The notes under the pieces: model-generated
What the model saw: only the letters and a program-made list of their open reading frames with translations
The model's database searches: none
Told to the model about the DNA's origin: nothing
Program-made: the position numbers and the translations under genes
Source of the DNA: Rhizaria sp. SCN 62-66
Taxonomy: Eukaryota
Assembly: GCA_001724265.1 (NCBI GenBank)
Contig: MEDY01000261.1
Location: 1 to 43,603 of the forward strand
Length of the DNA: 43,603 bases
Direction: 5' to 3'
Part shown: in pieces, positions 364 to 41,452 of the stretch
How the letters are laid out: every line of letters begins with the position of its first letter
How positions within the stretch are numbered: the stretch's first letter is position 1

Positions 364-3300
364 TTAGCGTCGTAGCGACGCCCTGAACTTACCAAACCGC
401 CTCCTACTCTTACCGCTGTTTTTTGTCTTGCTACTCTTGCGTTTGCTCTTGTTCTTGTCACTCTTTCCCCCACGCGCCCCGGCTAGACGACTGCCATTGC
501 CGACAGCAGCAGGTGTCCCTTCTGTGACGGCGCGCACGAGCAGCTGGAGCGCCTGCGCACGTTCGCCCGGCCAGTCACCGGGGATGCAGGGGCACAGACG
601 CTGAGTCGAGGTGCCGGAGCTGTCGCAGTCCCAGTAGCCCGGATTCGCGTTCAGCAGACACATGCCATCTAAGGGAACCGGATGACCATCGTCGGTTTTG
701 ATGCTGCGCACTTCGTCGGCGACGGTAAGCAGCGGTGGGATCCGCCAATCAAGCCACGGCGACGAGGTTGTCAGAGGACTTACATCCACACCAGCACTAG
801 CATCAACATGTTCACGTGAGGAGGTGTTATATTGTTGATGATGTTGCATCACGGCCGTGACACCATGACGCATCGGCACGTACGAGGGTTTATCGTGGCC
901 TGACACGATAGCGCAACCGCGCTCACAGGGATACACGCGACGCAACGCCTCACACGTATTCACAACCGGCAGTAAACCCTCGTGGCAGGCCCATGTCGTC
1001 GGCGCAGACTGCAGCAGCCGCGAACGCACGTGCGCAACGTCAGCCGCAAACACAGTCTCTGCAGCGGGTGTTCCGACGTTCGGCTCGTTTTGAAGAGTGT
1101 TTGTGGCCAGTGGTGCAACACGCTTTAGACGTGCATGCAACGAGAGCCATTGAGCAGGCCCACCGAGCGCAGCGCACACGTCAGAGCACGAGCGACCGCG
1201 TGGAGCGGGCAGCAGCACAGTTGACAATGGCGGCGGAGAAACGTACGGCAGCGCTGCAGTCACCGTACGCAGCAAACGGCGACGCGCATGAAGCGACAAT
1301 GTACGCTTGTTTGACTGTGACTATACACGTGATTGCGAGTTGGTGATCGACTGGGAAAGCTCGACAAAGACTGCAGCGGTGAACAGCGGCGACGCATCAC
1401 GAGAGCGTGCCTTTAGACGCGGGCGAGTGCGAGTATGGATGCTTGCCTGGTTGGTATGGGCAATTTGAAACGAACGCGTGATTGTGCGTTCATTGAACAC
1501 AGAATCTTGCGTTTTCGCCTCTGGAATAGCGCGTCGTAAGGCGTCAGAAGCATTGTTGTTCAGCGCCAAACCAGCTTCAGCAACACCAGCAACACTCACA
1601 GTATTCCTGTTCATCGCTGCTGATGTCACACTGACGTCACCTGCATGCGAGTCCACTGCTGTGACACTTTCGGTCGCTTGCACGTGCTTACGTGCAGTCG
1701 CAGGCAATGTGGCAACCGCAGCAACAAGAGCCCTCTCGTCAACGTCACGCAACGGAAGAAGCCTTGAAACTGAGTCTAACATTAGCGACGACAGTGGTGA
1801 CAGCCGTTGGTGCGCACGCGCAACTCTATTGGTGTCATTTGTGTTTTTCTTGTTGTGACTGGTAGTGATTGGGGGGAATGTGTCTTCAGTAACACGTGCA
1901 GCAAGTGCAAGCATTGGTGTTGGCGTATAACAATGCGTCGCAAGATGCAGGGCTTTGTTGCCTGCACGCAGACTGCGTGATGACGCACGACACCGCATTG
2001 AGCACACCACAAAAACTGCCGCCGCAGCAGACTCTTGTGTGCCCGCGTTCACAGTATTTGTTGCACCGCTGCGGCTTCCGTTGTTACCGTCATCGTCATC
2101 GTTGTGATTGTTGCCATCGCCTAGCCTGCCGCGGCTGCGCGCACTTATGTCTGCGAGAGTGGGACCCGTAAACAAGCCCGCCTCAGCTGTAGCCACGGCA
2201 AGCGCTACTGCAGCATCGTCCTTGACAGTGTCACCTTTGTCATCGCTTGCATTAGCAGAGGACTGCAGCAACAGACGTGCCGCAACAGTGAATGCATCAC
2301 TGTTGTCGTCCAGTGCAGCAGTCGTGTTCGCTGCACCTCCAAACAGCGCTGCCGCGGCACCAACGCGAGCCTGCAGCGCGCGCCGGGCCGCTGCAGCGAC
2401 ACCAGGCGCGTGCGCGCGCGCTGCGGCCGCGGCGGAGGCTTGGCGTCCCCAGTCGAGCGCATACGGCCCATGCGCAGATGCGACTCGGTGCAGATACTGG
2501 GCGAGAACAGACGCAGCAGCGACGCCGTCTCTGTTAGTATTCGATATAGATAATGTCGTTGCTGAGACTGTGGACAGAGGATGCCACCAGTCCCCACGGA
2601 AAGAACGGAGGCGGCGATGCATTGCCGAAGCACCGGGGAAGCTCGTGTTCGAACTCGAAACACTTGCATACGCAAGGTACTTCGTCCAGTCAAAGTTCTC
2701 CGCATCAGTCTCTCGCGATGACGAGACTGCGTGCGCAAGGGTGGGTGCGTGCATTTGCGCAAGGCAACGAGAAAGACATGACTCGTAGTCGCGACAACAA
2801 CCGAGATCAGAGCGGCAGTCACCGCGAGATGGAGAGCCAAATTCTGAGTTGTTTGATGTGACTTCACTCGCAGCCTTCGGCTTTGTGTCTGCTGCAGCAG
2901 TTGCTGCTGCACGAGTTCCACCATTTGAGGACGCAGACGTTGAGCTTCGTGGCGTCGTTGGCGGGCTCGTGCGCGTGCTTCGGCGAGGACCGCCAGAGCG
3001 GACGGGGAGATAAGTGGCTGGCCCCGAGGTCTCTTTGACGTCACTTGCCGCCGCGGTTGTTGTCGAGGACTCTGCGTTAGCAGCAGCTTGAGTGTTGTCA
3101 GCGAAAACAAACAATCGCCTGGTCGAGCCCACACTCTCACTTGCAGTTGGAGTAACTAATGCAACGTTGGCGCTGATGTCTTGCTGTTGTTTGTGTTTGA
3201 GCTGCTCTCGTTCCCAAGTCAGTGTTAAGCTCTCAGTGTTGGCAGTACTGTCACTGAGCGGCCGTGGATGTGACAGCAGATCTGATAGAGAGCGCAGCTT

Positions 3301-5814
3301 CGCTTGCGCCTGCAGCAGATGTTGTGCTTGCAGTGACGATTGAGAGTACCACGTCGCTGGCTTCCATTGCAGGCCCGCATACGCGTCGTGAGCAACACCG
3401 TCGTTTGGAGGAGACGTCGTCGTACGGGCACTGGGCAACGCAACGCCGCCACCGCCCCACGCCACCAGCTGCAACCGCATCGAATCTGATTCTGATTCTG
3501 CCTGTGACTGCAATTGGGACTGTGGCCGAGAGCCATCAGTGGCACTCGCAGCGTTGCTGTGTGCCGCGCTCGGACAGCAGCCGTTGCGCCGCAGCGCGTG
3601 CAGCGGGCATTCGACGCCGCGCGAGTCGACTGCGCACCGCGCGCCGGACGACCACATGCACCACTCGAGCGACTGCGAGGCGGACTAAGCCTGTGAGTTC
3701 CTCGCAGTTGCATTCACACTCTCTTTGTCTTTGTTGCCGCTCGACGTCGCAGGAGCGCTTGCACTGAAGTCCACGTAGCCACTGAGTCGCTCGCCCGCCA
3801 CGTGCGGCGCGCACCGCGCCGCGGGATCGTTGCCGGCGCGCCAGTCCTCGTTCGCAGCGAGCGGCGCCGTCAGCGGCAGCAGCAGCGGGTGGTGCCAGCC
3901 GCCCGCGCCGCCGCCGCCGGAGAGCCGCAGCGGGCACGATAGCAGGCCCGGGGCCAGCGCGCGCGTCGCGGCCTCGCTTTCGGCTGCGGCTGCGGTCGAG
4001 AGCGCGAGCGGCGGCGGAAGCACTTTCGTTGCCATGGCTGCAGTTTTTGAATCTAAATTATTGGTTGCTGTAGCCGGTGCGCCGAATCGGTGCGCCGCGG
4101 CGGGCACAGCGGCCCCGGTAGCAGTTTCTGTCACAGCAGACACTGCAGCGGCCGCAGCGGCAGCGTACTCGACCGCCAGCGCCCCGGTCGCTGCTAGCCC
4201 CGCCGCCGCCGCCGCCGCCAGGCCGGGCGGCAGCGCGGGTGCAGGCAGCGCGGGCAGAACGAAGGGGAACGCGCGTCCGCCCTTCGCGGCGATTAGCGAG
4301 CCCTTAAGACTAGGCGTTGCAACGCCAGAGGCGCTCCCACCGAGGGCGCTAGCAGTCAAAACACCGCTTTGACTGGCGTTTTGGGTGGCGCCAACGGGGC
4401 ACGTAAGCAGCAGCGGCGCAGCAACCGCGGCAGCAGCAGCGGCGACAGCGGCCGCGTTGGCGTCCGCCGCTGCGACCGCGGCCGCTGCGGCCTTGGTGGC
4501 GGCGGCCGAGGCCGACGGCGGGCGCGGCGGCAGCGGCTGCGGCGGCGCGCGCACCGAGGGCGTGAGGTGCGCCACGGGCAGCGAGAGCGGGCGCTGCAGC
4601 GGCAGCGGCGCGAGGCCGAGCGTGGAGGCGAGAGCGAGCACGGCTGCCGTGGTCTCTGCCGAGTGGCTCTGCACTAAATGGCTCGCTGACTGCGGTTGAT
4701 GCTGAGACGACGCTTGTGACTAGGACTGAGAGTCGCTCAAACCAGTGCCATTCACTGCATCGGTGTGATTGCCGTGGTTTTCACTGCGAAAGTTATCGTT
4801 GTCGTGAGTGACAGGCGTACCGACAAGCATGCGCATCATGAGAGTCGCCAAACTGTCTTTCTCCGCTCCCTTAACTGTTGTCGCAAAGACGGCACTCGCA
4901 TCACCATCAGCAACAACAGCCTTCCTAGCACTCTCGCCGACTGCGGGCGGTGTTGCCGCGGCGACGAACGGGAGCCCTGGAGACAGCAGCCCCTCCGTCG
5001 CCAGAAAACCTGGCACCGCGACCGTGGGCTCCGGGGCCGCCGCAGCCGCCGCGGCCGCGGGCACTGGGGGGGCAAAGCCGCGCCGCCGCGGGGCGGGCCT
5101 GCTGCTGGCGGCAGCAGCGGTGCTCACGGTCAGCGAGTCAGCAGGCAGCAGGAAGGAGAGCAGTGGGAGCAGGGAGAAAAACGGCGACAGCAACGGCGAT
5201 AGCATATGTGTCTGAGAGCCAGAAAAGCCAGACGCAGCGGCAGCAGCAGTGGCATTCGCCTGCGCAATGAGTGCCGCTAGCGACGCGAGACTGCCACTGT
5301 TCCCACTGTTCAGACCACTTGCACTAGCAGCAGCAGCAGCAGCGGTTGCAGCTGTTTCTGCGTCTCTGTATGAATCTGAGTCGATGTGCGCGCCATCAGC
5401 GCCCGCGCTGTTCCAGTTGCCCCACACAAAGGGGAATCTCCACACACTCGCCGCAGTCCCGCCGGCGCCGTTGCCGCTGTTAGCGCTGTACGGCGACGCG
5501 AGCTGGCTCGAAGGCAGTAACACTACTAAGTTTAGCGCGAGGATAGCGAGCACGCACAGAGCCGCGATCAGGCACACGGGCGCGCGCGTGCAACGCAAGG
5601 CAAACAACGCGGCAGCAGCGGTGCGGAGACGCGAGGGTGCTCGTTGGGCCACATACGCGGCGTTGGGGGACGAGGGCAGCATCGCTGCGGAGGGGTCGGC
5701 CACGTCCAATCCGCTCAACGCGGCCTCGTCATCGTCGTCAGCGGGAGTGAAGAGAGAAACAACAGGGGAGAACGGAGGAAAACGGGCCTGCCCCCGCGCG
5801 CGGGGAGCTCGCAT
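364..5814 (-). CDS. SPRING1: SPRING1/C12orf49 (DUF2054)-like type II membrane protein with a C-terminal MGAT5-C-like Cys-rich domain; ~1816 aa read through 3 in-frame TAG codons
   Basis: ORFs 4720-6024, 3685-4674, 1321-3657 and 364-1299 share one frame and are separated only by TAG (4720, 3685, 1321); the last ends in TAA. Domain order: N-terminal TM (VCLIAALCVLAILALNLVVLL); SPRING-type Cys motifs (C..SSGARCAVDSRGVEC...NGCC; CRSDLGCCRDYESCLSRCL; CSMRCRASS...HCY); C-terminal GRSCSDVC...NTCE...C..GC...CL...WDC...RLCPC. This resembles plant/algal SPRING homologs as recalled. Start is uncertain (ATG 5814 or 5682). Confidence 0.72.
1321..1323 (-). other. In-frame TAG, inferred sense codon (probably Gln)
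   Basis: NSQSRV*SQSNKRTLSLHARR; the frame stays open on both sides and the downstream domain has no ATG before GRSCSDVC. Confidence 0.78.
3685..3687 (-). other. In-frame TAG, inferred sense codon (probably Gln)
   Basis: ARNSQA*SASQSLEWCMWSSG; the first Cys of the SPRING domain lies upstream of the next ATG. Confidence 0.78.
4720..4722 (-). other. In-frame TAG, inferred sense codon (probably Gln)
   Basis: LSDSQS*SQASSQHQPQ; falls in the register of an SQ repeat. Confidence 0.78.
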
Positions 5815-6252: not shown

Positions 6253-7447
6253 ATGTCCAAGCCGTACTTCGTGATGGGTTTCGAGGGTTCCGCCAACAAA
6301 CTTGGTGTGGGCATTGTAAACGAGAAGGGTGAGATCCTGTCGAACCCGCGCGTGACGTACATCACTCCCCCGGGCACTGGCTTCCTCCCGCGCGAAACCT
6401 CTGAGCACCACCGCGCCCACATCCTGGAGCTGACGCACCGCGCGCTCCAGGAGGCCGGGCTGGAGCCCTCGCAGCTGTCGGCGCTGGCCTACACCAAGGG
6501 CCCCGGCATGGGCGCCCCGCTGCAGTCGGTTGCCACGGTCGTGCGCGTGCTGGCGCAGCTGTGGGACAAGCCGATCGTGGGCGTGAACCATTGCATCGGC
6601 CACATCGAGATGGGCCGCGTCATCACCGGCGTCAAGGACCCCATCGTGCTCTACGTCTCGGGCGGCAATACGCAGGTCCTCGCCTACTCTCTTAAGCACT
6701 ACTGCATCTTTGGTGAGACGATCGACATCGCCGTCGGCAACTGCCTAGACCGCTTCGCGCGCCTGATCGACCTGCCCAACGACCCCTCGCCCGGGTACAA
6801 CATCGAGCAGCTCGCCAAGCAGGGCTCCAAGTTCATCGAGCTGCCCTACATCGTCAAGGGCATGGACGTCTCCATCTCCGGCCTTGCCTCCAAGCTCGAC
6901 CAGATTGTCCCGGGCCTCCTCGCCAGCGGCGAGTACACCAAAGCCGACCTCTGCTTCTCGCTCCAGGTATGTGCGCAAACGACGGAAACGGACACATTAG
7001 TCAATGTCAATGGCAATATTATGTCATTTTCCCCCACGATTCCGCTTTATTTCAACATTTGTATTCTTATTTCATTCTATCACTCACAATAATTGTGTTA
7101 TATCCGTGTTTTGTTATTGTTCTTTTCACGCTTCACAGGAGACGATCTTCGCGATGCTTGTCGAGACGACTGAGCGCGCGATGGCGCACTGCGGCAAGAA
7201 GGATGTGCTGCTGGTTGGCGGCGTGGGCTGCAACGAGCGCCTGCAGCAGATGATGGGCACCATGGCGCGCGAGCGCGGCGGCGCCGTGTGCACCATGGAC
7301 TCGCGCTACTGCATCGACAACGGCGCAATGATCGCCTGGGCCGGACTCGAAATGCTCCGCGCGGGCGTCACCACGCCGCTGGAGGAGACCACGGTTACGC
7401 AGCGCTTCCGTACTGACGAGACCGAGTGTGTCTGGCGCGATGATTGA
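6253..7447 (+). CDS. OSGEP: tRNA N6-adenosine threonylcarbamoyltransferase Kae1/OSGEP, 340 aa, 2 exons (6253-6966, 7139-7447)
   Basis: [42 protein letters not shown] (HxxxH), [31 protein letters not shown] across the intron, [19 protein letters not shown]; stop TGA. Confidence 0.97.
6967..7138 (+). other. Spliceosomal intron in OSGEP (172 nt, phase 0)
   Basis: CAG|GTATGT...TTCACAG|GAG; AT-rich; removal restores conserved [11 protein letters not shown]. Confidence 0.95.
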
Positions 7448-7836: not shown

Positions 7837-9477
7837 TTATTGCATGAACATGTGCCACGCCTCCTGGATTCCGCCCAGCCCGTCCATCGGCGGCCTCTCC
7901 CTGCCCGCGCCCCACTCCTCGTGTCCGAGCCCCTGCTCCTCGGCGGCCTCGGCGTTCTCCCGCGCCTCTGCCAGCGCCTGCGCCCGCTGCGCCCGCGCAA
8001 GCTCGTCCTCGTCCTCGTTACCCTCAGCGCCCTCACCCGGGGGAGCGAAGGAGGCGCCTTCGCCGGCGGCGGCGGGCTGGCCCTCCACCGCGTCGTTCGC
8101 CTGCTGCTGCCGCCGGGCGCGCGCGTCCAGGTGCTGCCTGCGTTCGCGCTCCCACTGCTGCTGCGCGTCCCTCTGTCGGCGCCATTCGCGCTCGCGCTGC
8201 CGCGCGCCCTCCTCGCCGTCCTCCTCGCGCTCGGCCCCGGCAAGGACTGCACACGCGCGCGCGCAGTGGCCCGACACGACCGCGGCGAGCGAGAGCACTC
8301 CGAGCAGCCCCGCGGCGGGCGGCGCGACCAGCTCCGGCGCCGCGGCCCACAGCGCCCACATCAGCGCCAGCGCCGCGCAGGTCAGCACGGGGAACAGAGA
8401 CTGCGGGCGCTCCGCTAGGCGGGCCAGCCGCGCGCCCGCGGAGCGGTACGCGCGCGACACGGGGTTCGACGACACTGCAGCACGAGCAGCAGCAGCACCA
8501 CCACCACCAGCAACAGGGAAAGGGACAGCTGCTGGCCCAAGCGCGGGCGCGGACGCAGGCGCAGGCGCGGGCGCGGGCATTGAGTGCGAAACTACGCGGT
8601 TGCTCCCGTTAACGCCCGCTCGCGGCGCGCCCGATGCGGCGATGGCGGCGGCGGCGGCGCGGGCGTGGGCCGCGGCGGCCGCCATGCCGAGGCTGGGTTG
8701 GGCGGCGGACATGGCCGCTGCGCCGTTGGAGAGCCCGTGGCGCTGGCGCAGCCCGTCGCCGGCGAGCGCGGCAGCCACGGCGGCGCTGTTGCTATCACTG
8801 GCCAGATCGCCAGCATCGGCAGCCGCGGCAGCGACTGCAGCAGCAGCCGCAGAGGCAGAGGCATTGGAGGAGTCCGAGGCAGGGACGGCGTTGCGGGAGA
8901 GGTAGTGGTGGTAGCGGTCGGGGTACGCGGGGTCAACGGGGGCCACGTTATCGTCGTCACCAGAGTCGTCGCCCTCGGCACCATTGCGACGACGGCGGCG
9001 ACTTGCACTGGCGCGGGCGGCGTTGATGTCGATGTCTGCGTTGTCGCTGTCGCCGGCGTAGGGACGGGCCGCGATCGCAGCTGCGAGCGCGGCGGGACCC
9101 ATCGGCCGGCCACTGCTGTTGCTGCTGTGCACAGCGCTGCTGTTGCGGCTGAAATCGCTGTTCTGCTGCTGTTCGTGGTGGTTGTAGTCATTGTAGGCGG
9201 GGGGATTCACTTCTTCGACGATGTGGACGTGAATGACGGCTTTGTCAGTCAGGTTAGGGATCTCCGACACGGGCGCCCGATCGGAGACGCGGCGCCCGAG
9301 GTAGATGTACGTCAGCCGGTCGCCGTGCGCGACGTTATCGGCGAAGAGCTCGGCCGTAGCGCGAGAGAGCGTGTCGTTGGGGGACAGCGCCATCGGGCGC
9401 TTCTGAGGGTGGCCGATCACCATGAAGTTCACGATGATGTCACCTGCGGCCGCCATTGGGGACGCAAACTCAGACAT
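7837..9477 (-). CDS. Ubiquitin-like domain plus two transmembrane helices, TMUB1/2-like, ~546 aa
   Basis: N-terminal UBL pattern (IIVNF...NDTL....ELF...RLTYIYLGRRVSD...IPNLTDKAVIHVHI); hydrophobic hairpin LFPVLTCAALALMWALW-AAAPELVAPPAAGLLGVLSLAAVV; charged tail; stop TAA. Confidence 0.7.
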   Translation of the reverse strand: MSEFASPMAAAGDIIVNFMVIGHPQKRPMALSPNDTLSRATAELFADNVAHGDRLTYIYLGRRVSDRAPVSEIPNLTDKAVIHVHIVEEVNPPAYNDYNHHEQQQNSDFSRNSSAVHSSNSSGRPMGPAALAAAIAARPYAGDSDNADIDINAARASASRRRRRNGAEGDDSGDDDNVAPVDPAYPDRYHHYLSRNAVPASDSSNASASAAAAAVAAAAADAGDLASDSNSAAVAAALAGDGLRQRHGLSNGAAAMSAAQPSLGMAAAAAHARAAAAAIAASGAPRAGVNGSNRVVSHSMPAPAPAPASAPALGPAAVPFPVAGGGGAAAARAAVSSNPVSRAYRSAGARLARLAERPQSLFPVLTCAALALMWALWAAAPELVAPPAAGLLGVLSLAAVVSGHCARACAVLAGAEREEDGEEGARQREREWRRQRDAQQQWERERRQHLDARARRQQQANDAVEGQPAAAGEGASFAPPGEGAEGNEDEDELARAQRAQALAEARENAEAAEEQGLGHEEWGAGRERPPMDGLGGIQEAWHMFMQ

Positions 9478-9943: not shown

Positions 9944-11341
9944 TTAAAGCTCGTCCTTGGCCTCCTTCTTTTCCTCGGTCGCCGCCGCCGCCGCCGCGGG
10001 CGCCTCAGGCGCAGGCACGGCCCCGCCATCGGCCTGGGGCTCGTCCTTGACAAGGTAGAACTGGCGGATGATGTTTGCGCGCATCATGAGCTCTGCGCGC
10101 GCCGCAACGGTGATCGACTCGCTCTGGGCCATGCGGCGCAAGCGGTCCAGCTCCGTCTCCACGAAGCCCATGCCCTTGCTCACCACGGCATTGCCGTAGA
10201 GCGGGTAGTAGCGCGCCATCGCGTTGCCGTCCTCGACGGCCTTAGCGGCGCTGGCCTTGATCACCGGCAGCGTGCCCTGCGCACCCTTGATGTCCCCATT
10301 CAAGACCTTGATCGAGACCTCGTTTGCGAGCGTGTCCAACGTCGCGTCGCGGCCCGCGCGCTGGGTCACGCCGCCGCCGACCGTGCGCTCCAGCCCAGCG
10401 ACGTCGTTCATGTAGTCGACCAGGTCCGCGGCCGCGCGCGAGCCGTGCTGCTCCTCGGGGAACTTGCGCTCTGTGCCCGCGCGGAAGAGCTTCAGCGTGG
10501 GGAAACCCTGCGAGATATACGCAAGCAAAGATGAAGAGGAGATAGAACAAGTGAGAATTATAGAATACAAACTAAGACCATCTATATAATTATCTCATTG
10601 ATGAGTTTGGCTGGTTTCGAAAAATAAGTTAAAAAAAGTTGCACAGAGAAAGTGACGCATGCGTACCTGGATGTCGTACTTGGCGGCAATCATGCCGTAC
10701 TTGTCGCCATCCAGCTCGGCAAACACGACGGAGGACTCGCCCTCGAAGGCCTTGGCGGCGGACTCGTAGCCGGGCGCCATGCCGGTGCAGTGGCCGCACC
10801 AGGGCGCGAAGAACTTGACGAGGACGTTGGCCTTGGGGTTGAAGACGACCTAGTCGAAGTTCTCGTCCGTGAGCGTGACGACGGCCTTGACGGGCGCAGT
10901 GATCACGCCATTGAGCGAAAACTTCTTGTTGAGGAACTTAAGCAGCGCAGCCGCGTTGCGCTTGCCCTCATACTCGATACCGCGGAAGTCGGGGGAGGAC
11001 TTGGCGGGGAAGATCTTGACGGTAGGGAAACCGACAATAGAGAGCCGCTCCATGAGCGGCGACTGCTCGTTGCTGACCTGCGCGACCGTGATGCCCTGGC
11101 GGCGCAGAGCCCGGGCAACCTGCTCGTACTCGGGGATGAACTCCTTGCAGTGCTGGCACCAGGGGGCCGTGAAGGCGATCACCGTGGGCTTGTCCTGCGC
11201 GATGGTGGCCTCATAGTTCTCAGGGGTGAGCTGCAGCACGCCCGCCGCCGCGCTGCCGGCGAGGGCGAGCGAGGGCAGCGAAGTGAAGAGCACAAACACG
11301 GCACAAAGCGCGGCGAAGATGACGCCAGAAACTCCACGCAT
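9944..11341 (-). CDS. Protein disulfide isomerase, a-a'-ERp29c (PDI-D/TigA-like) type, 412 aa, 2 exons (11341-10667, 10507-9944), internal TAG at codon 164
   Basis: Signal peptide; thioredoxin a (APWCQHC...GFPTVKIF); a' ([29 protein letters not shown]...DIQ|GFPTLKLF); ERp29c-like helical domain (YY...KGMGFVETELDRL...RANIIRQF); C-terminal KDEL then TAA. Confidence 0.93.
10508..10666 (-). other. Spliceosomal intron in PDI (159 nt, phase 0)
   Basis: CAG|GTACGC...TCTCGCAG|GGT; AT-rich; restores KYDIQGFPTLKLF. Confidence 0.93.
10850..10852 (-). other. In-frame TAG within the PDI a' thioredoxin domain
   Basis: [28 protein letters not shown]; spacing matches the usual LT..NFDxVV......VLV.[8 protein letters not shown] pattern with one residue at the TAG. 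Confidence 0.9.
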
Positions 11342-14247: not shown

Positions 14248-14966
14248 CTATAAAGGGCAAAGCAAAAAGCAAGACACGTGAGCGGACAGGATACCAGCCA
14301 ACAGGGTGCAAAACGGGGCGACAAAGGGGAAGGAAGCAAGTCGACAGGGCAAGCCTCCCAAGCGTCATGACCGTCTCTACAAAACGTTACATGCGGACAG
14401 CAAACACACAGCAGATACACCAGACCATAAAGAATGCCCACAGGTATGCGCACTTCCAACGCGCATAATCCGGCTCCTCAAAACACAATTCCTTTCGTCG
14501 CCCAAGCCCCCTTGGCCCTGAAGCCATTCTCGACCGACCGACTATGACTGTGAGCAACTCCCCCTTAGACGGCTGTAAGCACCAGCCGAACCGACCGCCG
14601 TCCAAATTCCGACCGTTCAGCCAGACTGGCTGACTGACCGAACGGATCCACAGCGAGGAGCCCGCCTCGTCCAGGAAGTGCCCGACGCACCCTTAAACCG
14701 TAGTGTTTGAGTGTGTTTTGTCAGCATTTTAAATATTTTATTTTATATTCAAGTCGACCACCCTGTTTTGAATTTTGTTGATTTATTTTTAAGCGTAACA
14801 TCTGAAGACTCATTCCGAGATTCTTTCTGATAGAATTCACATCAGCACTCTCCTCTCACTGTTGACTTGCCTTCCCAACCTACGCGCTTCATTCAGGTCT
14901 AGCTCCACGCAGTCTTTCCCGATTCAAACACGACCCCGGCCCAATATTGCCGCGCTCTGGACCTCT
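14248..14966. promoter_or_regulatory. Probable divergent promoter region (EGF gene / USP48-like) with clustered GACC/GACT motifs
   Basis: Head-to-head genes ~720 bp apart; CGACCGACCGACT, CCGAACCGACCG and GACTGGCTGACTGACCG at 14531-14645. Confidence 0.5.
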
Positions 14967-16499
14967 ATGTCTCACGACTCTGCGGCTCCCCAACCCCCCG
15001 CCGCGGCCTCCGCCGGCGCGTCAGGCGCCGCCGTCTCTGCGCCGTCGTCGTGGCCCGAGCTGTTCGGCTTCGACCGCCCGTCCTGCCTCGAGCCCACAAC
15101 CACGATCTTCCCGCGCACGTCCCGCGCCTGCGGCAACGACCTGCCTCCCGTCGCCGGCCGTCCCGCGGGTGAGGTCGAGGCTTGGACCGCGGGCGGCCAC
15201 CCCAACTGCGTGCACTGGCGCGCCTGCCTCGACCCGCGCGACGGCCAGGGCCTCTGGGGCGGCGCTTCGGGGCTCCGCGCCTTCGCCACGCTCCGCTCCG
15301 CCGTCGTCGGCGCCGCCGCGTCCGCCGCCGGCGCGACGACCGCCGCGTACATGCACCAGCCCGCCTTTGTCGACGCGTCCGCTAATGCTGCCGCTGCATC
15401 ATCGTCCGCAGCTGCTGCCTCGTCATCGTCTGCTGCGAGCAGCAGTGCGATGGTCGACTCCGACTCCGACGCCGCGCTGGCGCGCCAGCTCGCCGCGGAC
15501 GAGGCCGCAGCCGACGCCGCCGCGGTCGTGGCCGCCTCCGAGGCCTCCGTGCTGGCCTCGCTGGCCGCCGTCTCAGTTCTGAGCCCGGAGGCGGCGATGC
15601 TGCCGCCGCCGCTGCGCGCGCGCCTCGCGCCAGACCCGCGGCTGGGGCTCCGCGCCGCGCCCGCCGCCGCGGCGCTGCTTGCGCAGACGGCCGTGTCGGC
15701 CGCGGCCTCGACCGGCACCGCCGCCGCCGCGCTCGCCGCCGCCGAGGCCGCCGCGGCCAAAGCGGTCTGGGGCAAGGTGGCGCGCGCGCTGCCCTCCGCC
15801 GCCGTGGCCGCCGCCATTGCCACGGGTGCTGCGGGGCCCGCAAGCGAGCGCGATGATGGCGAGCTGCATGGTGGCAAGATCTACGGTGGCGCCAAGAGCG
15901 AGTGTGCTGGAGATGTTAGCAGTAGTGTTACCAACGGTGATATGATTGCCCGCGAAGACGCTGTGTGTGTCGGTGTGCCCGAATGCGCGTGGTCCGAGGC
16001 GGTGCCCGCGTCGCGCGTCCCTCTGCCTGGACAAGTCCACAGTGACAACTCAGCTAGCTCAAGCTCTAGCTCAAGCTCTAGCTCTAGTGCGAGTGCGAGC
16101 GCCGATAACGCTCAATGCCACCATATGAGCCATCAGCAGCTTCTGCAGCAGCCACAGCCGCCACAGCAACAGCAGCAACAGCAACAGCAGCCACAGCCGC
16201 CGCAGCCGCAGTACCCCGCGCTGACGATCATTGCCGCCCGTGGCCTCGTTCCCCCCGTTGTCGCCCCGCATCACGATGCAAGCGCGGCGTCGCACAGTGC
16301 GCAGACTGCGGCGGCCGCGGTGGCCGCGGTGCCTTCTGCGCTGGCGCGTCTGGCCGGCGTGGCAAATCTGGGCGCGACGTGCTACATGTCCGCCGTGCTG
16401 CAGTGCCTGTCGCAGGTGCCCGAGCTCGTCGAGTCCGTCATGCACTACAACAACAGCCCCCCCGCGAACCTCCAGAGTTGCAGCACCAACGCCTACGCT

Positions 16500-31600: not shown

Positions 31601-34600
31601 ACTCGGCGAAGAGCGGGTCTGCCGCGGCCCAGTCGGGCAGCGGGCCGCCGCTCAGACGCGCGCCGCTTCGGCCACCAACAGCGACACTGTTCGTGCTCTT
31701 GTTCATATTCGCGTCGGCGCTCGCAGAGCTACTTGTGGCAAGGCTTTGCGAGCGCTCGAGCACGAAGCGGCGGCCGATGGGCGGCGGAGAGTCGCTGCCG
31801 CTATCGCGATCCTGGTCGCCCTCGCTGTTGATGTTCGCGGCCGCGCTGCCAGAGGTGGCGTTGATCCAAGCGGACACGGTCTCGCGGTAGCCGGTCACGC
31901 CGGGCGGCGGCGCGGGCAGCGCGGGCATTTCCAGCTCCAGCTCTATCTCAGCAGACGCGGCAGCAACAGGCGCAATTGAAGTTGCAGCAGAGTCAGAGAT
32001 TGTGTGCTGCTCAGCGTCATCGGGCTGTGTTATGACAGCATCATCGGTTTCAGTGCCGTTAGCATTGCAACTAACGGTGTCGCCGTCAGTGATGGCGGCG
32101 GCGTCAACGTCGGCCGCTGCGGCTGAGATAGTCTCGCCAGATTCAGCTACAGCCTCAGTCTCAACTTCTTCGTTCTCACCAGCTTCAGCAGCCGCGGCGG
32201 CAGCAACGGCGGCCTCTGCTGCGGCGTTATGCGCAGCGTCAAGTGCCTCGAGCCGCGCAAACTCAGCCTCCATCCACCGGTCTTCCTCGTCTTGCTGCTG
32301 CTGCCGCTGATCAGCAGTGAGTGCGCGCGGACTGCCTGCAGCGGCTGCCGAAACAGCGTCGCCCGCGTTCTCATCGCTGTTACCAGCGGCTGCAGCACTG
32401 TTGCGGCGCGAGGCGGCGGTACTGCTGGCCCGACTACCCTTCGTGCTCTTGTTGTTTGTATTAGCGGCCAGGTCTGTCGTTGACGGAGGGTTGCTCAAGC
32501 CGCGCTTCTTCGGCGTTGCCTTGTTGCTCGAGCTCTCGCTGACAGCGGTAGGACTGCTAGCCTTGCTCTTTGAGCCTGCGCTCGTGCTTGCTTTAGCATC
32601 GGGGGCATCATCGTCGTCATCCGCTTCCTCTTCCCCTTCGACGATCGCTCCCATCGACCGAGCGCCAGCGTGCTTCTGCTTCTGCTGCTCTTGTTGCTGC
32701 GGTTGCATCTCCTCGCAGCTCGCGTCTTCCGCGTCGTCCTGCGGCGTCACTAGCCCGGCCCGTGCCCCGCTCGCGCTGCCCGCGTAACCGTGGCCGTGCC
32801 CGCGGCCGCTGTCGCCCGCGTGTGCGAGCGCGCGCTCCGCCCGGAGGAAGCCCTCGACCTGGCCCAGCCGGTGTTGCGCGCCAAGCCTGCGCCAGATGAT
32901 CGCTTCCACGGTCTGCATGAACCCGTCGTACGCCGCCTTGGACGCGCGCAGCGCGCGCATGCGGGCCTCCACGCGCTCGCGGGCGCCGCGCGCACCCAGG
33001 GCCCCGCCGCCGCCTACCGCACCGGCGCCAGAGGGACCAGAGCCGGTCGCTGTAGCCAGAGCGAACCCCGTGTTACCGGTGCTTACAAGCGAGTCCGCAG
33101 CAAGCGCGCTCGCGCTGCTGCTGCTGCTGCTGCTACCGTCATCAGCGTGAGTGCGAGTCGCTGCCTCGCTGCTAGAACCGCGCTGCGCCGAAGCAGTCGC
33201 GCCCTCGGGCCTGCGCTTGGCGCCCCTGCCCCCGTTCACCGGCGGCACGGCCTCCACGGTGAGCTGCACCACCACGGTGCTGCCCAGCGCGCCGCCCGCC
33301 GAAGCTGCCAGCGCGAAGAACAGCGCACCGGGCAGCGCGAACGCGGGGTGGTTCGCCGGCAGCGTCAGCGCGCCGCTCGCCACCGTGCCCGCGGCCGCGA
33401 CGACCGCAGCCAGCGCCGGCGCCGCCGCGGCAGCAGTGCCCACAGCGTCAGCGCCACTCGCGGCGGGCATAGTCGGCGAGGCAGTGTTGGCGTTGGCGGA
33501 TGGGGACGCGGAGCCGGGCACAGAGGCGCGGAAAGACCATGGCGCGCGCGCCCGCCTCGGGTGCGGCGCGTCCCTGTCAGCACACACGCTCACGGTCATC
33601 CCCGCCAGAGCCTCCGTGGCCGCCGCCACCGCCGCGGCCGTCGACGACGACGACGACGAGTGGCCGTGGGCGCCGTTTGCGGCCTGCGCGAGGGCGGGCG
33701 GCGCAAGAATGGCGGCCTTGAGCTTGAGCGGCGCGTTGGCGAGCCCAGGCAGCTGGACGCTGGCGTACGCCGTGCCGCCGCGCGGGACAGACACGCGCGC
33801 GGTCCACTTAGTCGCGCCCGGGACACTTACTCCGCCAGCGCCGTGCTGCGCGGCCAGAGCCCCGGCGGCGGCGGCGGCGGCGGCGGCGCTGGCGGCCGGG
33901 ACGAGGACGACGTGCTTGGGCTTGTTCGCGGCGTTGGCTTCAACAATACCGCCAACACTGCCAGCGCCACCGAAGCCGCTTTGACCCGGCGAACCGAATG
34001 GAGAAGAGAAGCCGCCGTGGTAGCCGTGGCGGCCGCGGCGCGCGCCGCCGTAGCCGTCACCGCCCTCATAGTCATCGTCGTCGTCATCGTCGTCGCTGTC
34101 GTCATCATAGTCGTTGCTGTCATCGACGTCATCGTCGTCTTCGTCATCCCCGTCGCCGTGATGCTGGTCCCAGTCCCCGCCGTCGCGCCTGCCGCGCCGG
34201 GACGCGGCCACGGCAGCCGCCGCGGCGGCCGCGCCCGCCATGCTGCTCTGGTGGCTAGCCATGTCCTGCGTGACAACGTCGACGGCGCGCATCAGCGCCG
34301 CAAACCGCTGCGCCCTTGCCCACGCGGCCTCGGGCGCAATGTCCGTGCTGCTAAAGCCCGCAGCGGCGGGCAGCGGCTGCAGTTGCGCCGCGAGCAAGCC
34401 CGGCGCGGGCACTGTAGCTGTGGCTGCTGCTGCGGCAGCGCCCGCAGTTGAAGTCGTAGTCGCAGTGGCCACCGCGCCCGCGCTCGTGACTGAGGCAGAC
34501 GGGGCCGTGAGGGCCGAGGGGGAGAGGACTGCGCCCGTCGCGGCGCCGGCGTTGCTGTCTGAGATGTTGCTCTTGTTCTTGCTGTTGTCCTCGAGACGAG

Positions 34601-36206
34601 AGGAGGCGCGAGACTGTGGCTTCTGCGACTGCAGCTGCTGAGCGCCGCTGTCAGTGGCCTTGTCGCGCCCGCCTAGAGCAGCCGCAACGGCCACGGCAGC
34701 GCCCGCAATCACGCGATCGCCCTCGTCATCGTCGTCGTCATCGTCACCATTGACTGCACCGCTGCCCTCACTCTTGCCGTTACTAGCGGAGATGTCGACG
34801 TTGACTGGCGGCACGGCGACGTTCGCGGCCTCAGCTGCCTGCTTGACGTCGAACTCCACAGCGGGCACGACCTGCTCCAGCGCGCGCAGCTGCTCCGCGC
34901 CGCGCTCCCACTGCGCGCGGAGCCGCTGCACGTACCCCACGGCCGCCGCGCGTTGCGCCGGGTCCGCCAACGCGGGGATCTGCGCGCGCGCGTGCGCCGC
35001 GCGGGCCGTCATGTCGCGCAGAAAGCCCCGCAGGCGATGCAGGTGCGCGGCCAGGTCGTCGCGGCGCGCGGCGTGCAGCGCGAGCCGCACGGCGGGCGCC
35101 TCGGCAGACGCTGATGCCGACAAGGCCGCGGTGGCGGCGCGGGCGGCGGCGGCGGCGGCGGGCGTGGGTGCGGCTAGCAGCGACGCGAAGGCGGCCTCCC
35201 ACTGGCGCAGGCGAATCGACACGGGCGCGGGCAGCCACACCGCGGCGGCCGGGTCGCTCGCCGCCGAGGCCGACGTCGCGGCGGCCGCGGCGAAGGACAG
35301 CGCGTCGAAGGACGACGCGGCCGCCGCGGCGCCTGAGACGGCAGTGGCGTCATCGCCGTTAAGCGCGAGCAGTGGCGCCAAGCTGGCCGCCGCCGCGCCC
35401 TGCCGCGCGCCGCCGCCAACCTTGCTCCCGGCGCCCGCGGCGGCGCCGGCGCTGTTGCGCAGGTGCGGGAGGTAAAGCGGGACGCGGTCCGCGGCGGCGG
35501 CCGAGACTGGCGCGGCCGTGTAGAGCGCGGTGCTAGTAACGCCCGCGGTCGCGGCCGCGCGCGCCTGCTCGAGCAGCTCGCTGGGGAGGTTGGGGAAGGG
35601 CGCCGAGAGCGCGCCGTCGTCGTCGGCCGCCGAGGCCTGCGTGACGCCCAGCACGTGACGCAGATATCCGACGAAGAGGCGGAGCTCGCGGCGCGCCTGC
35701 GACGGCAACAGCAGCGTCTGGTCGGACGAGATGCCACCCACGGCGCGCGCGGGGGGCGCCGACGCCGACGCAAGCGTGCCCGGGGCAGCGCCGGGGCCGC
35801 CGGAGCCCGCTGCGCCTGCGTCAGAGGCCGAGGTAAAGGCGGAGGATGAGGAGGAAGAGGAGGCAGAGAGCGCGGGTAGTGTGGCGGGGTAGGGCTGACG
35901 CGGGTCGATGCCGACGCGCGCGGAAGACGACGACAAGGCGCGAAGTACGCCCGGGTGTGCGCCGTAAGCTGAGACAGTCGGCGGAGCGGCAGGACCATAG
36001 GGGGCGCGGCCAGCGCCAGCGGCAGAGGCGGCTGAAGCAGAGGCAACAGACGAGGACGGCGCGGGCAGGGCGTGCTTGTCGGCTGCAGTGAGGCCGGCGG
36101 CAACGGCGGAGGTACGCGGAACAAAGCCACGCGGGTTGGCGCGGTCAAGCCCGGCGAGACGGGACGAGGTGGCCCCGTGGGGCGCCGCACAGGGGCGTGG
36201 AGGCAT
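25695..36206 (-). CDS. Giant Ala-rich protein of unknown function, ~3503 aa, apparently intronless, internal TAG at codon 3194
   Basis: The 3193-codon ORF stops at TAG (26625), but the frame continues in the same GC-rich coding style (VVAA*LAPTRARG...GGPMRLDP) into ORF 25695-26519, which ends in TAA at the switch to AT-rich sequence. Several coiled-coil-like stretches; no confidently recognised family. Confidence 0.75.
26625..26627 (-). other. In-frame TAG, inferred sense codon (probably Gln)
   Basis: RMRGVVAA*LAPTRARG; 309 further open codons to TAA. Confidence 0.75.
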
Positions 36207-37157
36207 CTCCAGCTGTAGCGGTTATATCACAGCCCAGAAACGGCTGGCTGTTGAGGTGGTAAAAGAAGGCTGGAAGTGAAGTGGGAAAAACAAAAGAGTT
36301 AAGGTAAGTATTTGGAATAAAAACACGCAGTGGCTGTGCGTTTGACGGACATTGGAGGGCGTGGGAAGACATTCTCATAATTAGGGTCAAGCACAGGGGC
36401 CGAAAAAACGAAGCGCCACTCGATTGGGCAAACACCCTCAAGTTTGTTGCCAACCCGCAATTTCAGCTCGATTTGTTCTCGCTAGAAGTGGTGCCACTCG
36501 AAACACGCATGTAAGATCGTTAGAACCATAGTTTATGTATGATTTGGTGATTTACTGCGCGCCATTCACTGGTCCTGTCACCGTGTATTCGCCAATAAGT
36601 TGCAGCCCTTTCGCACGAAAGGCGTTCTTGGATGACGGCTGCGAGGAACTTTAAGAGCTTTTTTTGCCACCGGGCGCGCACTGTTACTTACGAGTTTGAT
36701 TTAATTTTTCTATTTTATATCTGTTTGCATTATTCGCTTGCTACATGCACACTTTGCGCGACATGTCGCCTCAATTACAGCAACTTTATCGTACTCGCTT
36801 CCCTTTGACCCTACTTCCATTCTCTAACTCTGTGCACGCGACATGTTTTCTCCTTCTTGGTATAGCCCCTACTTTTCTTTCCAGCTCGCGTTATTTTCTT
36901 CAACCTGATTTTGGTACCCGCGGTTGAGCTCTTTTCCGCCCGTTTCCGCAGGTCTTCGCTTCCGCCTCGCGCCATCTCATCCTACACTGAGCCGGGCATC
37001 AAACCGTGCGTTGTCGGTCTTTCCGCTCCGATCTCTCGGTACCGGCCTTCGAGACCCCCCGTTTCCCCACCCCAGTCCCCGGTCCGTGCATTGCACTCCC
37101 TGCACACCGCCTGCGCTTCCCCTCCGTTTCGTCCCTGTTGTCTCTCTGTGCCAGTGT
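36207..37157. promoter_or_regulatory. Probable divergent promoter region (giant protein / HTH protein)
   Basis: Head-to-head genes ~950 bp apart with a lower-GC core. Confidence 0.45.
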
Positions 37158-39657
37158 ATGAGCCAGCACCGTCCTCGTCGCATCGCCACTTCTGCGGCCT
37201 CGCGCGCTGCAAAGCTCAACTTCGACCCCGCCGACGACACCGCCTCGCCCTCCGTCGTCGTCCCCACCCCGCCTGGCGCCCCCAGCAGCAGCAGCGCCGC
37301 CGCCGGCCACGGCCACGGCCACGCTTTCGGTCATGCCGCATCGACGCCATTCGCAGGTTTCCCTATCTCACCGCCCGTCGGCCTCATGAACAGCGTTGCC
37401 GCCGGCTCCGCGGCCGCTGTAGGCCTGGGCCACGGCGCCGCCGCCACGCCCGCGGGCTACCTCGCCGCGCACTCACAGCTGCAGCAGCAGCAGCAGCAGC
37501 AGTCGGGCTACTTCACGCCCGGTGTCACAGGTCTCGCAGGCTCCAGCGGTGCCACCGGCCAGCCGTCCCCCTCGGCTACCGGGGCTGGCGCCGCGGGCTT
37601 CCCCTCGATCGCTTCGCCCCTCGCAGCCGGCTCCGGCAACGTCATGAGCAGCGGCGGCAACCATAATAGCGAAGTTGGGGGCTTCTACGACTCGTCGGCG
37701 CCGTCCCCGTCCGCCACTTCGGCCGCGGCTGCCGCCGCCGCTGCGGCGTCGTCGCTGCCCGCCTTCGTGGGTTCCGGCGCGGCGAGCGCGACCAACCCGC
37801 TGGGCGTGGCGGGGCTAATGTTCCCTGTGCTCTCAGCCATGGCCACGGCCGGCAACAAGGCCGGCGGGGGCTTCGCGCCGCCGCCGCGCGCCGCCGAGCT
37901 GCCCGCGGGAGTCTTCGCGGGCGACGCCGCGTCGGCCACGGCCGCGCTCGTCGCGCTGCACGCCTCGGCCGTTGACGCCGCGCGCGCGCGGGCCGCCGAC
38001 GCCGCGGGCTCGGCCGCCTCGGCCGAGGTGACCGCTGACGCCGCCGCCGTCGCAGAGGCCTACGCGCAGCTGCTGCAGCAGTACCAACAACCGCAGCTGC
38101 AGCAGCAGGGCAGCGGTGGCTCGGACGCCGCCGCCGACAGCAAGAACAACGGCAACAGCGACAGCAACAGCAAGAACAGTCACAAGGATGACGACAAAGA
38201 CGACTCCAAGGACGACGAGGACGATGCCAACGACAACAAGAGCGACGACGACGAGGCAGACCGGCCTTCTCCCGCGCTTAGCACCTCTGACGCCGCTGCC
38301 GCTGGCAATGGCAACGGCAACAGCAACGGTGGGGTCGACCCGTCTTCGTTCGGCCCTGCGCCGCCCGCCGTGACGAGCCCCGAGGTGGTGGCCCGCGCGG
38401 CGGCGGCGTCCGAGTCGGCCTCCGCGGCGGCGGCGTCGAGCGTGGACCCCGTGACCGTGGCCGTGCCCGCCATGTCGTCGATTCTCACGGCGCCCTCGGC
38501 GCGCGCGGTGCTCGTCGCGCCCGTGGCCGTGCTCATCGAGACCGTGCTGCACGTACTGCGCCGCGACCGCGTGCGCCAAAAGGACCTGGCCGCCTCCATC
38601 GGGCTCTCGGGGTCGACGCTGTCGCCCATGCTGCGCGGCAAGTACCGCCACACCAAGGATGCGCACATGACGCGGCTGCGCGAGTGGGTCTACCAGCGTG
38701 ACAAACTCTTCGTCACCTCCGTCCTCCACCAGGTAAGCACTATGCTGCGAAAACACGATCTGATGAAGCTCTCCAATGCTGTTGTTTATCGTTATATTAC
38801 AATAATAGTTGCGGCTGGTAACTCGTGCCATCGACTTAATGTTGGTTTTTATGTCATAATTCAAATATCATTGTGCTCTATACTCACATATTGTCTCTCT
38901 TTTTGCATTGACGTTTTGTTTTCTCGCCGCGCTCGCGACAGGCCGTGTTGATGGCGTACAACGAGATCACCCTGGCGGCCGTCGTCGGCGTGCCGCGCCC
39001 CGACCTGGCGCGCTGGCTGCGCATGACAATGCCGCTCGACGCGCGCATCGCGATCAACCACAAGGTCTGCGACTGGGTGTCATCGCTGACAGCTGTCTCG
39101 GCCAACCAATCCCACGCGCAGACGACGCACGCACACGCCGCTGCCGCTGCCGCCGCCGCCGCGGGCGCGGGCGCGGGCGCAGGCTTGCCCTCGGGGCTGC
39201 TCATGCCCGGCTCCGGCGCCGGCATGCACGGCGGCGGCCTGGGCGGCGGCATGTCCGCCATGTCCGCCATGGGCGGCGGCCTGGGGGGCTCCATGGGCGG
39301 GGGTGCAATGGGCGGCATGGCCGGGCTGGCCGGATTGGGCGCCATGGGCGGGCCGCTTGGCGTGCTCAGTGGGCTCGGCGGCGTCGGCCCCATGGGCGGC
39401 ATGGGCGCTATGGGCGGCATGGGCGGCGCTTTGAGCCAGCATCTGGGCGCCATGAACGCCATGAACGGCATGGGCGGCATGGGCGGCATGGGCATGGGCG
39501 GCATGGGCGGCATGAACCCGATGCTCGGCAACGCCATGGGTCTCAACGGTATCAGCGGGCTCGGCCAACTGGGTCAGCTGGGACAGATGGGCCAGTTCGG
39601 CGGCCAGATGGGCCAAATGGGCAACATGAACGCCTTGGGCGCTTTGGGGCAGCTTGC

Positions 39658-39693
<36 letters not shown>

Positions 39694-41452
39694 ACAGCAG
39701 CAACAGCAGCAGCTGAGCAGCCAGCTGAGCCAGCTGTCGCAGCTCAACCAGCTCACCCAGACTGGCCAGATTAACCAAATGCAGGCCGCGCACGCAATGA
39801 ACATGATCCTCCAGCAGGACCAGCCACAACAGCAGCAGCAAGGGATGACCCCCGGCAGCGCTCTGGGCAACGGCAGCAACATGGGCTACTTCCCCTCCAA
39901 TGCCAACGCCAGCAGCGGCAACGCCAGTGGCAATAGCAACGGCAGCGGCAACAGCGCCGCGAACGCGCTGACGGCTCTGCTGAGCAACAGCAGCGGCGAG
40001 ACCGCGCAGGCCATCGCTACCGCGCTCGCAGCCGTCGCGGCCAACGGCAATGGCGGCGGCAGCCAGGCCGAGGCACTGAACGCCGCGCTCGCCGCGGCCA
40101 CTGCCGCCGTCGCCAACAACAACGCCAACAACGGCGCGGGTGTGACCGGCCTCGGCCTCAGCATGGGCGGCAACAACCCCACGCCCCCCGCGAACGCCCA
40201 GTTCCCCGGCTCCGCCGCCGCGCGCCTGGCCTCCGCGCTGCGCTCCACGCCGTCCCCGTCCACCAACCCCAACCCCAACGCCGCCCCCACCGCGAACTCC
40301 GGCCCCGGCAGTGCGGCCGCTGCTGCCGCGCTGCTGGCGGCCCGCGGCGGCTACCGCCCGCGCCCCGCCGGCGCCCTCGCAGGCCCCGGCGCCGTCGCCG
40401 GTGCTGGTGTTGCGGGCATGACAGGGGCGGCGCGCGGTGACGCCGACGGCGCGGGCGGCGACGACTTGGCGGCTCCCGGCAACACGTGGGCCGACGCCGC
40501 TGCCTCCCCCATCTCCCCCGCCGGCGCCGCTGGCGTCACCGGCGCTGCTAATGCCAACAGCAACAGCGGCGGCGAGACGAGCGCGGCGGCGGCGAACTTG
40601 CTGGCACTGATTTCGCAGTCCGCCAGCCGCGCCGGCAGCGGCGCCAGCGGCAACAACAGTGGGGCTAATTCGGCGCTGCTGGCTGCGCTCTCCGGCTCGG
40701 GCGCCGGCTCCGACGCCGCGGCCGCCGCACCCGCCGCGCTCGCCAACGGCTCCCCGCTCCCGCCCCAGGTCCAGGCCCAGGTCCAGTCCCAGTCGCAGGC
40801 GCAGGCGAACAGCGCGGCCCGCACGGCTGCCAGCGCCGGTGCTGGTGCCGGTGCAAGCGCTGCCGGCCGCAGCGCCATCACGCCGACCGCGCTGGCGGCC
40901 GCGTCGGCGTCGTTCCTGACCAATTACTCGCAGTCGCTCGACTCGATGCAGCAGCAGCAGCCCTTCGCGGGCCTCGCGCGCGCCGGCAACGCCGCCGCCA
41001 GCCCAGTCTCCGCCCCCATGACTGGCACTGGCGCTGGCGCCGGCACTGGCATTGGGTCTTCTGCCGCAACCGCCGCGCTGCTGGCCGGCCGCGGTGCCGC
41101 CACGCGCCCCATCGGCGCCGGCCCCACCGCTGCTGCCGGAGCCCCTGCGCTGCTGTCCGGCGTCGCTGCGGCGGCCGCATCTGGCGCGCTGCTCGGCGGC
41201 GGCGTCACCGCCAACGCCAACAACAACAGCAACAGAGCCGGGTTCGCGCCCGCTGGGGCATCGCGCACCAGCTCCGGCAATAGCGCGGTCTCCACCGGCC
41301 CCGCGGTCACCCTCACGGTCACCGGTGCTGTTGCCACCGGCGCCGGCGTTGGCGTAGGCGCTGGCACTGGCACCGACGCCGGCGAGGACGACGGCCCGAT
41401 CGAGCAGTCGGTCAAGCGCGCCCGGCTGCACAAGTCACTGCCTCTGCATTAA
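37158..41452 (+). CDS. Putative transcription factor with tandem lambda-repressor-like (Cro/C1-type) HTH domains and Q-, GM- and Ala-rich regions, ~1361 aa, 2 exons (37158-38732, 38942-41452)
   Basis: VLRRDRVRQKDLAASIGLSGSTLSPMLRGKY...LREWV followed by a second copy (NEITLAAVVGVPRPDLARWL...VCDWV); GGM repeats; Q18; basic C-terminal KRAR (NLS-like); stop TAA. Confidence 0.7.
38733..38941 (+). other. Spliceosomal intron in HTH gene (209 nt, phase 0)
   Basis: CAG|GTAAGC...GCGACAG|GCC; AT-rich interior; joins ORFs 36924-38951 and 38945-41452. Confidence 0.88.
39659..39712 (+). repeat. CAG/CAA repeat, poly-Gln (18)
   Basis: 18 consecutive Gln codons in the HTH protein. Confidence 0.95.

Follow-up and report, generated by a model that had tools for sequence, protein, structure and literature searches.

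UAG is probably read as an amino acid in conserved genes of an uncultured, GC-rich eukaryote

The contig MEDY01000261.1 of Rhizaria sp. SCN 62-66, a stretch of 43,603 nucleotides (nt) that we analysed in full and call the window, carries five in-frame TAG codons in three of its genes. We consider it probable, at roughly 0.7, that UAG is translated as an amino acid in the source organism. Nine units were modelled in the window, counting a T-rich region past 41.5 kb that shows no clear ORF. When the codons were re-read, all five in-frame stops (1321, 3685, 4720, 10850 and 26625, minus strand) proved to be TAG, as an earlier reading of the sequence alone had claimed, and the contexts quoted in that reading are exact (SRV-TAG-SQS, SQA-TAG-SASQS, SQS-TAG-SQ, NFD-TAG-VV and AA-TAG-LA). 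The eight gene ends likewise agree with the earlier account: six are TAA (364, 7837, 9944, 11815, 25695 and 41450), two are TGA (7445 and 25471) and none is TAG, in a sample too small to stand for the whole genome. Together the exon models amount to 12,248 codons, with five in-frame TAGs, no TAA, no TGA and no frameshift. The reported absence of internal TAA and TGA is therefore correct as a count over these codons, although it is partly built in by the construction of the models, since open reading frames (ORFs) and exons were delimited by TAA and TGA. The use of UAA and UGA as stops is supported by two ends that are anchored by homology, a small sample of one each: the PDI gene ends in KDEL-TAA, and the OSGEP gene ends in WRDD-TGA. 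In the latter the TGA directly follows WRDD, which is the C-terminal end in four of six aligned OSGEP homologues.

The PDI gene (9944-11341, minus strand) consists of exon 1 (10667-11341), an intron (10508-10666), exon 2 (9947-10507) and a TAA stop (9944-9946). Its in-frame TAG (10850-10852, minus strand) is codon 164 and lies at the start of the second thioredoxin domain (..VVTLTDENFD-TAG-VVFNPKANVLVKFFAPWCGHC..), 17 codons upstream of the WCGHC motif of that domain. All features expected of the family are present, namely two thioredoxin domains with CxxC, an ERp29-type C-terminal domain and KDEL, and the matches are labelled PDIA6 or ERp38/TigA. Exon 1 matches PF00085 in two thioredoxin stretches (E 8e-40), and exon 2 matches the ERp29-type C-terminal domain PF07749 (E 1e-10). 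Everything 3' of the TAG is intact, including the rest of exon 1, a GT..AG intron with correct boundaries, the ERp29-type domain and the terminal KDEL-TAA. The protein aligns unbroken across the TAG with 14 homologues, one of which (P0128) is 58% identical. This contiguous homology at 10850 excludes an intron at the TAG. The call for P0128 is an uninterrupted 377 residues and spans the position of the intron in the window's PDI. The active site of the first thioredoxin domain of the window's protein is CQHC (WCQHC) and not the usual CGHC, which is found in the second domain. Among the best 80 loci of a metagenome scan with PDI exon 1, one is a close relative (L001) and the others are PDIs of other eukaryotes, 26-51% identical. 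One metagenome locus (L058; best segment 49%, GC 0.59) was dropped, being a single-domain thioredoxin protein of an unrelated organism.

Three further TAGs interrupt a gene for a SPRING1-like type II membrane protein (364-5814, minus strand), which has 1,816 codons and a TAA stop at 364-366. Numbered on the window's protein (P0001), TAG 4720 (4720-4722) is residue 441, in a polar linker past the membrane anchor; TAG 3685 (3685-3687) is residue 786, past the N-terminal anchor and ahead of the first Cys-rich block; and TAG 1321 (1321-1323) is residue 1574, where low-complexity sequence links two conserved Cys-rich blocks (all on the minus strand). The match to the SPRING1-like family PF10218 scores 38 bits against a cut-off of 22 and is confined to positions 51-88 of the 131 in the profile. 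When the last 699 residues were used in a full HMMER scan, the hits were two fragments of the window's protein itself (the first stops at the TAG and the second begins past it), a protein of 405 residues (P0252) and distant homologues of 328-496 residues. P0252 contains, in one chain, the upstream block CRxSSRSLRAGNK..HCY at 63% identity and the downstream Cys-rich domain at 46% over 255 residues. The blocks that flank TAG 1321 (P0001 residues 1342-1372 and 1599-1821) occur on one polypeptide and in the same order in the three homologues aligned (P0252, P0253 and P0259; 405-496 residues), and the Cys blocks 3' of this TAG are all intact in the window. At TAG 3685 a weak block match begins 14 residues downstream.

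P0001 has a single strong hydrophobic segment (residues 151-182), which is N-terminal of all three TAGs (441, 786 and 1574). A single N-terminal hydrophobic anchor is also found in four of the five homologues checked (P0253, P0254, P0259 and P0271) and is absent from P0252. Since the anchor is encoded upstream of all three TAGs, the architecture of the SPRING1-like family would require translation through each of them. P0252 shares a metagenome contig of 30,144 nt with relatives of the window's OSGEP (P0005, 87% identical) and PDI (P0128, 58%); the gene neighbourhood is thus conserved, and P0252 is likely to be the orthologue. The N-terminus of P0252 falls exactly on the block-a region, a hint that a stop or an intron immediately precedes it in the relative. 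Compared with homologues of 328-496 residues, the 1,816 codons of the window's gene include Ala/Ser/Gln-rich linkers that are several-fold longer, and all three TAGs lie in such linkers.

The remaining TAG (26625-26627, minus strand) is residue 3199 of an Ala-rich gene of no known family (25695-36221, minus strand; 3,508 codons, one TAG, TAA stop at 25695-25697), and 309 more codons follow it before the TAA. No homologues of this gene were found, and a search for long relatives of its C-terminal 600 residues, the part with TAG 26625, gave no hit, a weak negative in that low-complexity words crowd the candidates. For TAG 26625, TAG 3685 and TAG 4720 the support is compositional and consists of the continuity of GC content at the three codon positions (GC1-3). 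Values of GC1-3 range from 0.4 to 1.0 across each TAG and from about 0.2 to 0.45 after TAA 364 and TAA 25695. The earlier statement that coding-style sequence continues past the TAGs, with a drop in GC at gene ends, thus holds for all five TAGs in its first half and is demonstrated at these two ends in its second.

The open frame behind each TAG is a strong argument, stronger than the fact that every interruption is a TAG. Open frames of 344, 787, 318 and 309 codons follow the TAGs, and the stop rate in the other two frames of the same genes is 1.7% and 2.8% per codon, so that each run has a chance probability of about 5e-3 to 1e-10.

The interrupted alleles also recur. Near-identical DNA was sought among the Logan contigs of sequencing runs by the share of sampled window words that each contained. 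This share was 0.88-1.00 in three runs (X1-X3) and 0.80 in a run from another study (X4), all labelled as bioreactor or wastewater metagenomes. Runs X2 and X3 come from different studies and years and contain the same contigs piece for piece; they should therefore be counted once and perhaps represent the same data deposited twice. L001, a metagenome contig from a separate deposit, is 100% identical to the window over 3,272 nt, TAG 10850 included. Seven contigs carry the N-terminal part of the PDI as a fragment terminated by TAG 10850, and four contigs from several sources carry the SPRING1-like fragment that stops at TAG 1321. The same genes are also present on a contig of 118,568 nt. Some of these assemblies may share reads, so we count the TAG alleles as recurrent and not as independent. 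Between run X4 and the window there are at most 45 listed differences over 20 kb, and these are scattered. One X4 contig of 3,730 nt has no differences from the window over 92-3177 and keeps TAG 1321, which must therefore be older than the split of the two strains. The strain differences comprise about 11 synonymous and 9-10 non-synonymous changes, too few and too mixed to yield a selection signal downstream of the TAGs.

A number of observations weigh against translation of UAG. The code put forward by the sequence-only reading (UAG sense, UAA and UGA stops) stands insofar as TAG is non-terminating in at least two conserved genes, those for the PDI and the SPRING1-like protein; its extension to the whole genome draws on five codons in three of nine genes on one contig. 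The exclusive occurrence of TAG is poor evidence when taken alone, as a random nonsense mutation under this codon usage gives TAG in 64-65% of cases and five out of five would have a probability of about 0.11. TAG is also rare (5 of 12,248 codons, or 0.41 per 1000), compared with 103 expected from position-specific base frequencies and about 60 that would be expected if the TTG/CTG ratio (69/402) applied to CAG. It is thus 12- to 20-fold below the level of an ordinary synonym, a strong avoidance of the kind that a deleterious codon would also show. At the PDI site the strains differ: at 10852 run X4 has C on the plus strand as its sole allele, which makes the codon GAG (Glu), versus TAG in the window. 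Homology is compatible with other readings at three of the five TAGs, those in low-complexity linkers, and the facts that favour Gln as the encoded residue, given below, fit CAG-to-TAG nonsense changes equally well. No tRNA was confirmed in the window, in which ARAGORN made one call and Rfam none at the gathering threshold. The ARAGORN call, a tRNA-Ala (GGC) of 97 nt at 35055-35151 (plus strand), was taken as probably false because it is antisense within the GC-rich coding sequence of the large gene and the window has no Rfam match. Much of this suits the main rival, under which the code is standard and the five TAGs are real nonsense alleles, produced by recent loss of function or in a decaying haplotype of a clonal or polyploid protist; this strain would then have only truncated or dead copies of the PDI gene and of the two large genes. 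The GAG codon of X4 is its best argument and would, under the standard code, be the wild-type allele beside a nonsense TAG. The frequency of TAG among random nonsense changes and the rarity of the codon are in keeping with this rival, and C-to-T changes that create nonsense codons would be expected in linkers rich in CAG. We nevertheless consider nonsense alleles unlikely. Only about 2.2% of single-base changes create stops, so that five of them would presuppose unselected divergence of about 0.6% over all the models and of about 1.2% for the SPRING1-like gene taken by itself. Frameshifts, TAA and TGA are nevertheless all absent from the exon models. The Cys blocks after TAG 1321 and the splice sites, exon 2 and KDEL of the PDI gene have stayed intact, TAG 1321 is common to two strains, TAG alleles are present on four to seven contigs from several sources, and TAG ends none of the eight genes.

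There are two further explanations. In one, UAG is ambiguous, terminating in some contexts and being read through here by leaky termination or near-cognate decoding with no dedicated tRNA, like the context-dependent stop/sense codes of some ciliates; ambiguous stop/sense codes have been described (PMC4967479; 10.1101/2022.04.12.488043). The very low use of UAG and its placement mostly in tolerant linkers and in a variable column would be expected under such a code, but the absence of TAG from all eight gene ends would not, and the trinucleotide pairs that follow the five TAGs (TCA CAG, TCC GCC, TCA CAA, GTC GTC and CTC GCC) share no motif. Unless decoding were efficient, three read-throughs in a single gene would moreover multiply into a small output of full-length protein, and we regard ambiguity as quite improbable. 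It is very improbable that the TAGs are removed or changed in RNA, whether as parts of small GC-rich introns or by editing (e.g. UAG to UGG by A-to-I). This explanation draws on in-frame GTACGC..AG intervals of 108-177 nt (GC 0.51-0.55) that span TAG 4720, GTACGC being the 5' splice hexamer of both the PDI intron and the first intron of the ubiquitin C-terminal hydrolase gene, and on a poly(A) metatranscriptome (run X6) that has pieces on the contig but zero depth at 10852 and, among the pieces listed, none that covers a TAG. Both points speak against the translation of UAG, and at TAG 4720, the least well supported of the five, an intron is conceivable. Unlike the known introns, however, the GTACGC..AG intervals are not low in GC and have no T-rich tract at the 3' end. 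The four introns checked have lengths of 157-172 nt, a GC of 0.31-0.42, a GTA[CT]G start and T-rich 3' ends where the 3' end was seen, unlike the sequence around the TAGs, which has a GC of 0.46-0.78 and no T-rich 3' tract. Candidates at TAGs 1321 and 3685 are implausible, starting with GTGTGA or GTGCGC and not with GTA[CT]G (GC 0.53-0.67); no intron candidate was found at TAG 26625, and contiguous homology excludes one at 10850. Editing of UAG to UGG would yield Trp, which is at odds with both the PDI column and its GAG variant.

If UAG is decoded as sense, the identity of the residue is less clear. The sequence-only reading had favoured Gln, and this was not borne out by the single TAG column that can be aligned, that of the PDI, which is variable, has Gln in none of the 14 homologues and is GAG in the closest strain. 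The column is hydrophilic, with Ser in five homologues (including the two closest relatives), Glu in three, Thr in two, Lys in two, Asp in one and Asn in one. Each of the three SPRING1-like TAGs, on the other side, occupies the CAR slot of a local two-codon NCN-CAR (Ser/Ala-Gln) repeat, for example TCT-CAG TCC-TAG TCA-CAA. CAG is the commonest Gln codon (349 of 436) and is one transition from TAG, and the reassignment of UAG to Gln is the commonest precedent (PMC11687900). The repeat context at these three sites favours CAG ancestry. Given sense decoding, we place Gln at about even odds against all alternatives taken together. Glu is a live but rather doubtful alternative because of the GAG codon at the PDI site in one strain, and some other residue is a possibility to which we give a little more weight.

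Under translation of UAG, UAG would be read as an amino acid while UAA and UGA terminate. The codon would be decoded by a UAG-reading tRNA, which by analogy might have a CUA anticodon and derive from a Gln tRNA, and the recognition of UAG by eRF1, whose gene does not lie on this contig, would presumably be weakened. A use of 0.41 UAG per 1000 codons would fit a recent, inefficient or partly ambiguous reassignment. More speculatively, and at less than even odds, we suggest that UAG was reassigned independently in an undescribed clade of GC-rich eukaryotes, that the change is still early or incomplete, and that it is perhaps polymorphic between strains (TAG versus GAG in the PDI gene). The elements of this suggestion include the disappearance of UAG from the gene ends of the window and the use of TAA as main terminator despite a GC content at third codon positions (GC3) of ~0.78.

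The precedents named in the sequence-only reading (Iotanema spirale, the rhizarian exLh and ciliates) are in print (PMC5304391 and PMC11687900). In the fornicate Iotanema spirale UAG encodes Gln and UAA is still a stop (PMC5304391); the likeness is that UAG alone occurs in frame and that Gln is the residue proposed earlier for the window. The case for I. spirale was built on a large number of transcripts, with conserved columns assessed by a likelihood test, whereas the window offers five codons and no alignable conserved column. The window organism, furthermore, is GC-rich and from an aerobic habitat, and its OSGEP clade does not indicate a fornicate affinity. In the rhizarian exLh (Sainouroidea), 71 genes together contain 384 in-frame UAGs, which are read as Leu, and some of its gene sets use UAG more often than any other Leu codon (PMC5304391). 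Like the window organism, exLh is a non-ciliate protist known only as sequence from a mixed sample, and every in-frame stop is UAG; UAG is abundant there, in contrast to 5 of 12,248 codons here, and Leu suits neither the hydrophilic PDI column nor the Ser/Gln-rich contexts of the window.

Among ciliates, UAG encodes Gln in Hartmannula sinica, Trochilia petrani and Protocruzia tuzeti and Leu in three TARA metagenome-assembled genomes (PMC11687900). The phyllopharyngean ciliates resemble the window in that UAG alone is reassigned and UAA is the preferred terminator, as TAA is at six of eight gene ends here. They differ in their 'widespread usage' of sense UAG and their suppressor tRNA genes, compared with minimal UAG use here; the window organism also differs in being GC-rich and in having introns of 157-172 nt. 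An oligohymenophorean ciliate with split UAA and UAG meanings reportedly uses UAG for Glu. In this ciliate UAA and UAG encode different amino acids (PMC10553269); UAG is decoupled from UAA there as in the window, but UAA is sense, whereas TAA ends six of eight genes here. The non-ciliate cases of UAG-only reassignment named in PMC5304391 and PMC11687900 are Iotanema spirale and one uncultured rhizarian. In the full-text literature we found no paper that ties an activated-sludge protist to a change in the meaning of UAG, and none on the window organism itself, although supplementary files may hold further UAG-reassigned taxa. UAG-only reassignment is thus already known elsewhere, and the window organism would be a further and probably independent member.

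The contig comes from an uncultured GC-rich eukaryote represented in bioreactor and wastewater metagenomes. GC per kb ranges from 0.45 to 0.77 along the window, the intergenic DNA is AT-rich and the coding GC3 is the ~0.78 given above. The OSGEP/Kae1 gene (6253-7447, plus strand) consists of exon 1 (6253-6966), an intron (6967-7138), exon 2 (7139-7444) and the TGA stop (7445-7447). In the OSGEP tree the window sequence falls in a clade of 16 environmental sequences with no named member (local support 97), and the nearest named sequences are those of Dermamoeba and Paradermamoeba, 72-73% identical. The tree leaves open the position of this clade among eukaryotes, and we therefore assign it to no group. 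A scan of genome contigs with OSGEP returned, as its best 80 loci, Kae1 genes that are 41-51% identical (78 from records titled archaeal and two from metagenome-assembled genomes titled bacterial) and no eukaryotic relative; a scan of viral contigs gave no matches.

The other genes of the window have no in-frame TAG. A gene with no Pfam match lies at 7837-9477 (minus strand; TAA stop 7837-7839), and a gene for a teneurin-type EGF-repeat protein at 11815-13965 (minus strand; TAA stop 11815-11817). In the latter, tight clusters of differences occur at 12973-13004 and 13837-13861 in RNA contigs of run X6 and in an X4 DNA contig, a pattern that suggests a second strain or a paralogous copy of the repeat and not scattered single-nucleotide polymorphisms. 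The ubiquitin C-terminal hydrolase gene (14799-25473, plus strand; TGA stop 25471-25473) has at least two AT-rich introns, one at 17166-17322 and one from 17681. A Gly/Met/Gln-rich gene (36909-41452, plus strand; TAA stop 41450-41452) was modelled from two ORFs joined over an AT-rich intron near 38.8-38.94 kb (about 38800-38941). Its second ORF (38912-41452, plus strand) encodes GGMGGM.. Gly/Met repeats, 20 consecutive Gln and extended Ala/Asn/Ser tracts, matches no Pfam family and has a product that looks like a prion-like low-complexity protein. The difference between intron GC (0.31-0.42) and exon GC (0.7-0.77) is a signature that could be used for binning contigs of this organism.

The region 41500-43100 is T-rich, with a GC of 0.45-0.56 per kb and an AT skew of -0.47 at 42-43 kb; no clear ORF was seen there, and it may be an untranslated region or an intron of a gene that leaves the contig. 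The contig terminus (43540-43603, plus strand) is a (GACC)n microsatellite, which probably accounts for the assembly stopping at this point.

The database entries for the window's PDI and SPRING1-like proteins are fragments, and callers that use the standard code split these genes at TAG. If TAG is a sense codon, the current metagenomic annotation of the clade is wrong. The organism would then be an additional case of the rare code in which UAG has changed and UAA is still a stop, providing data on how UAG and UAA become decoupled, and its low use of UAG might show an early stage of stop-codon capture.

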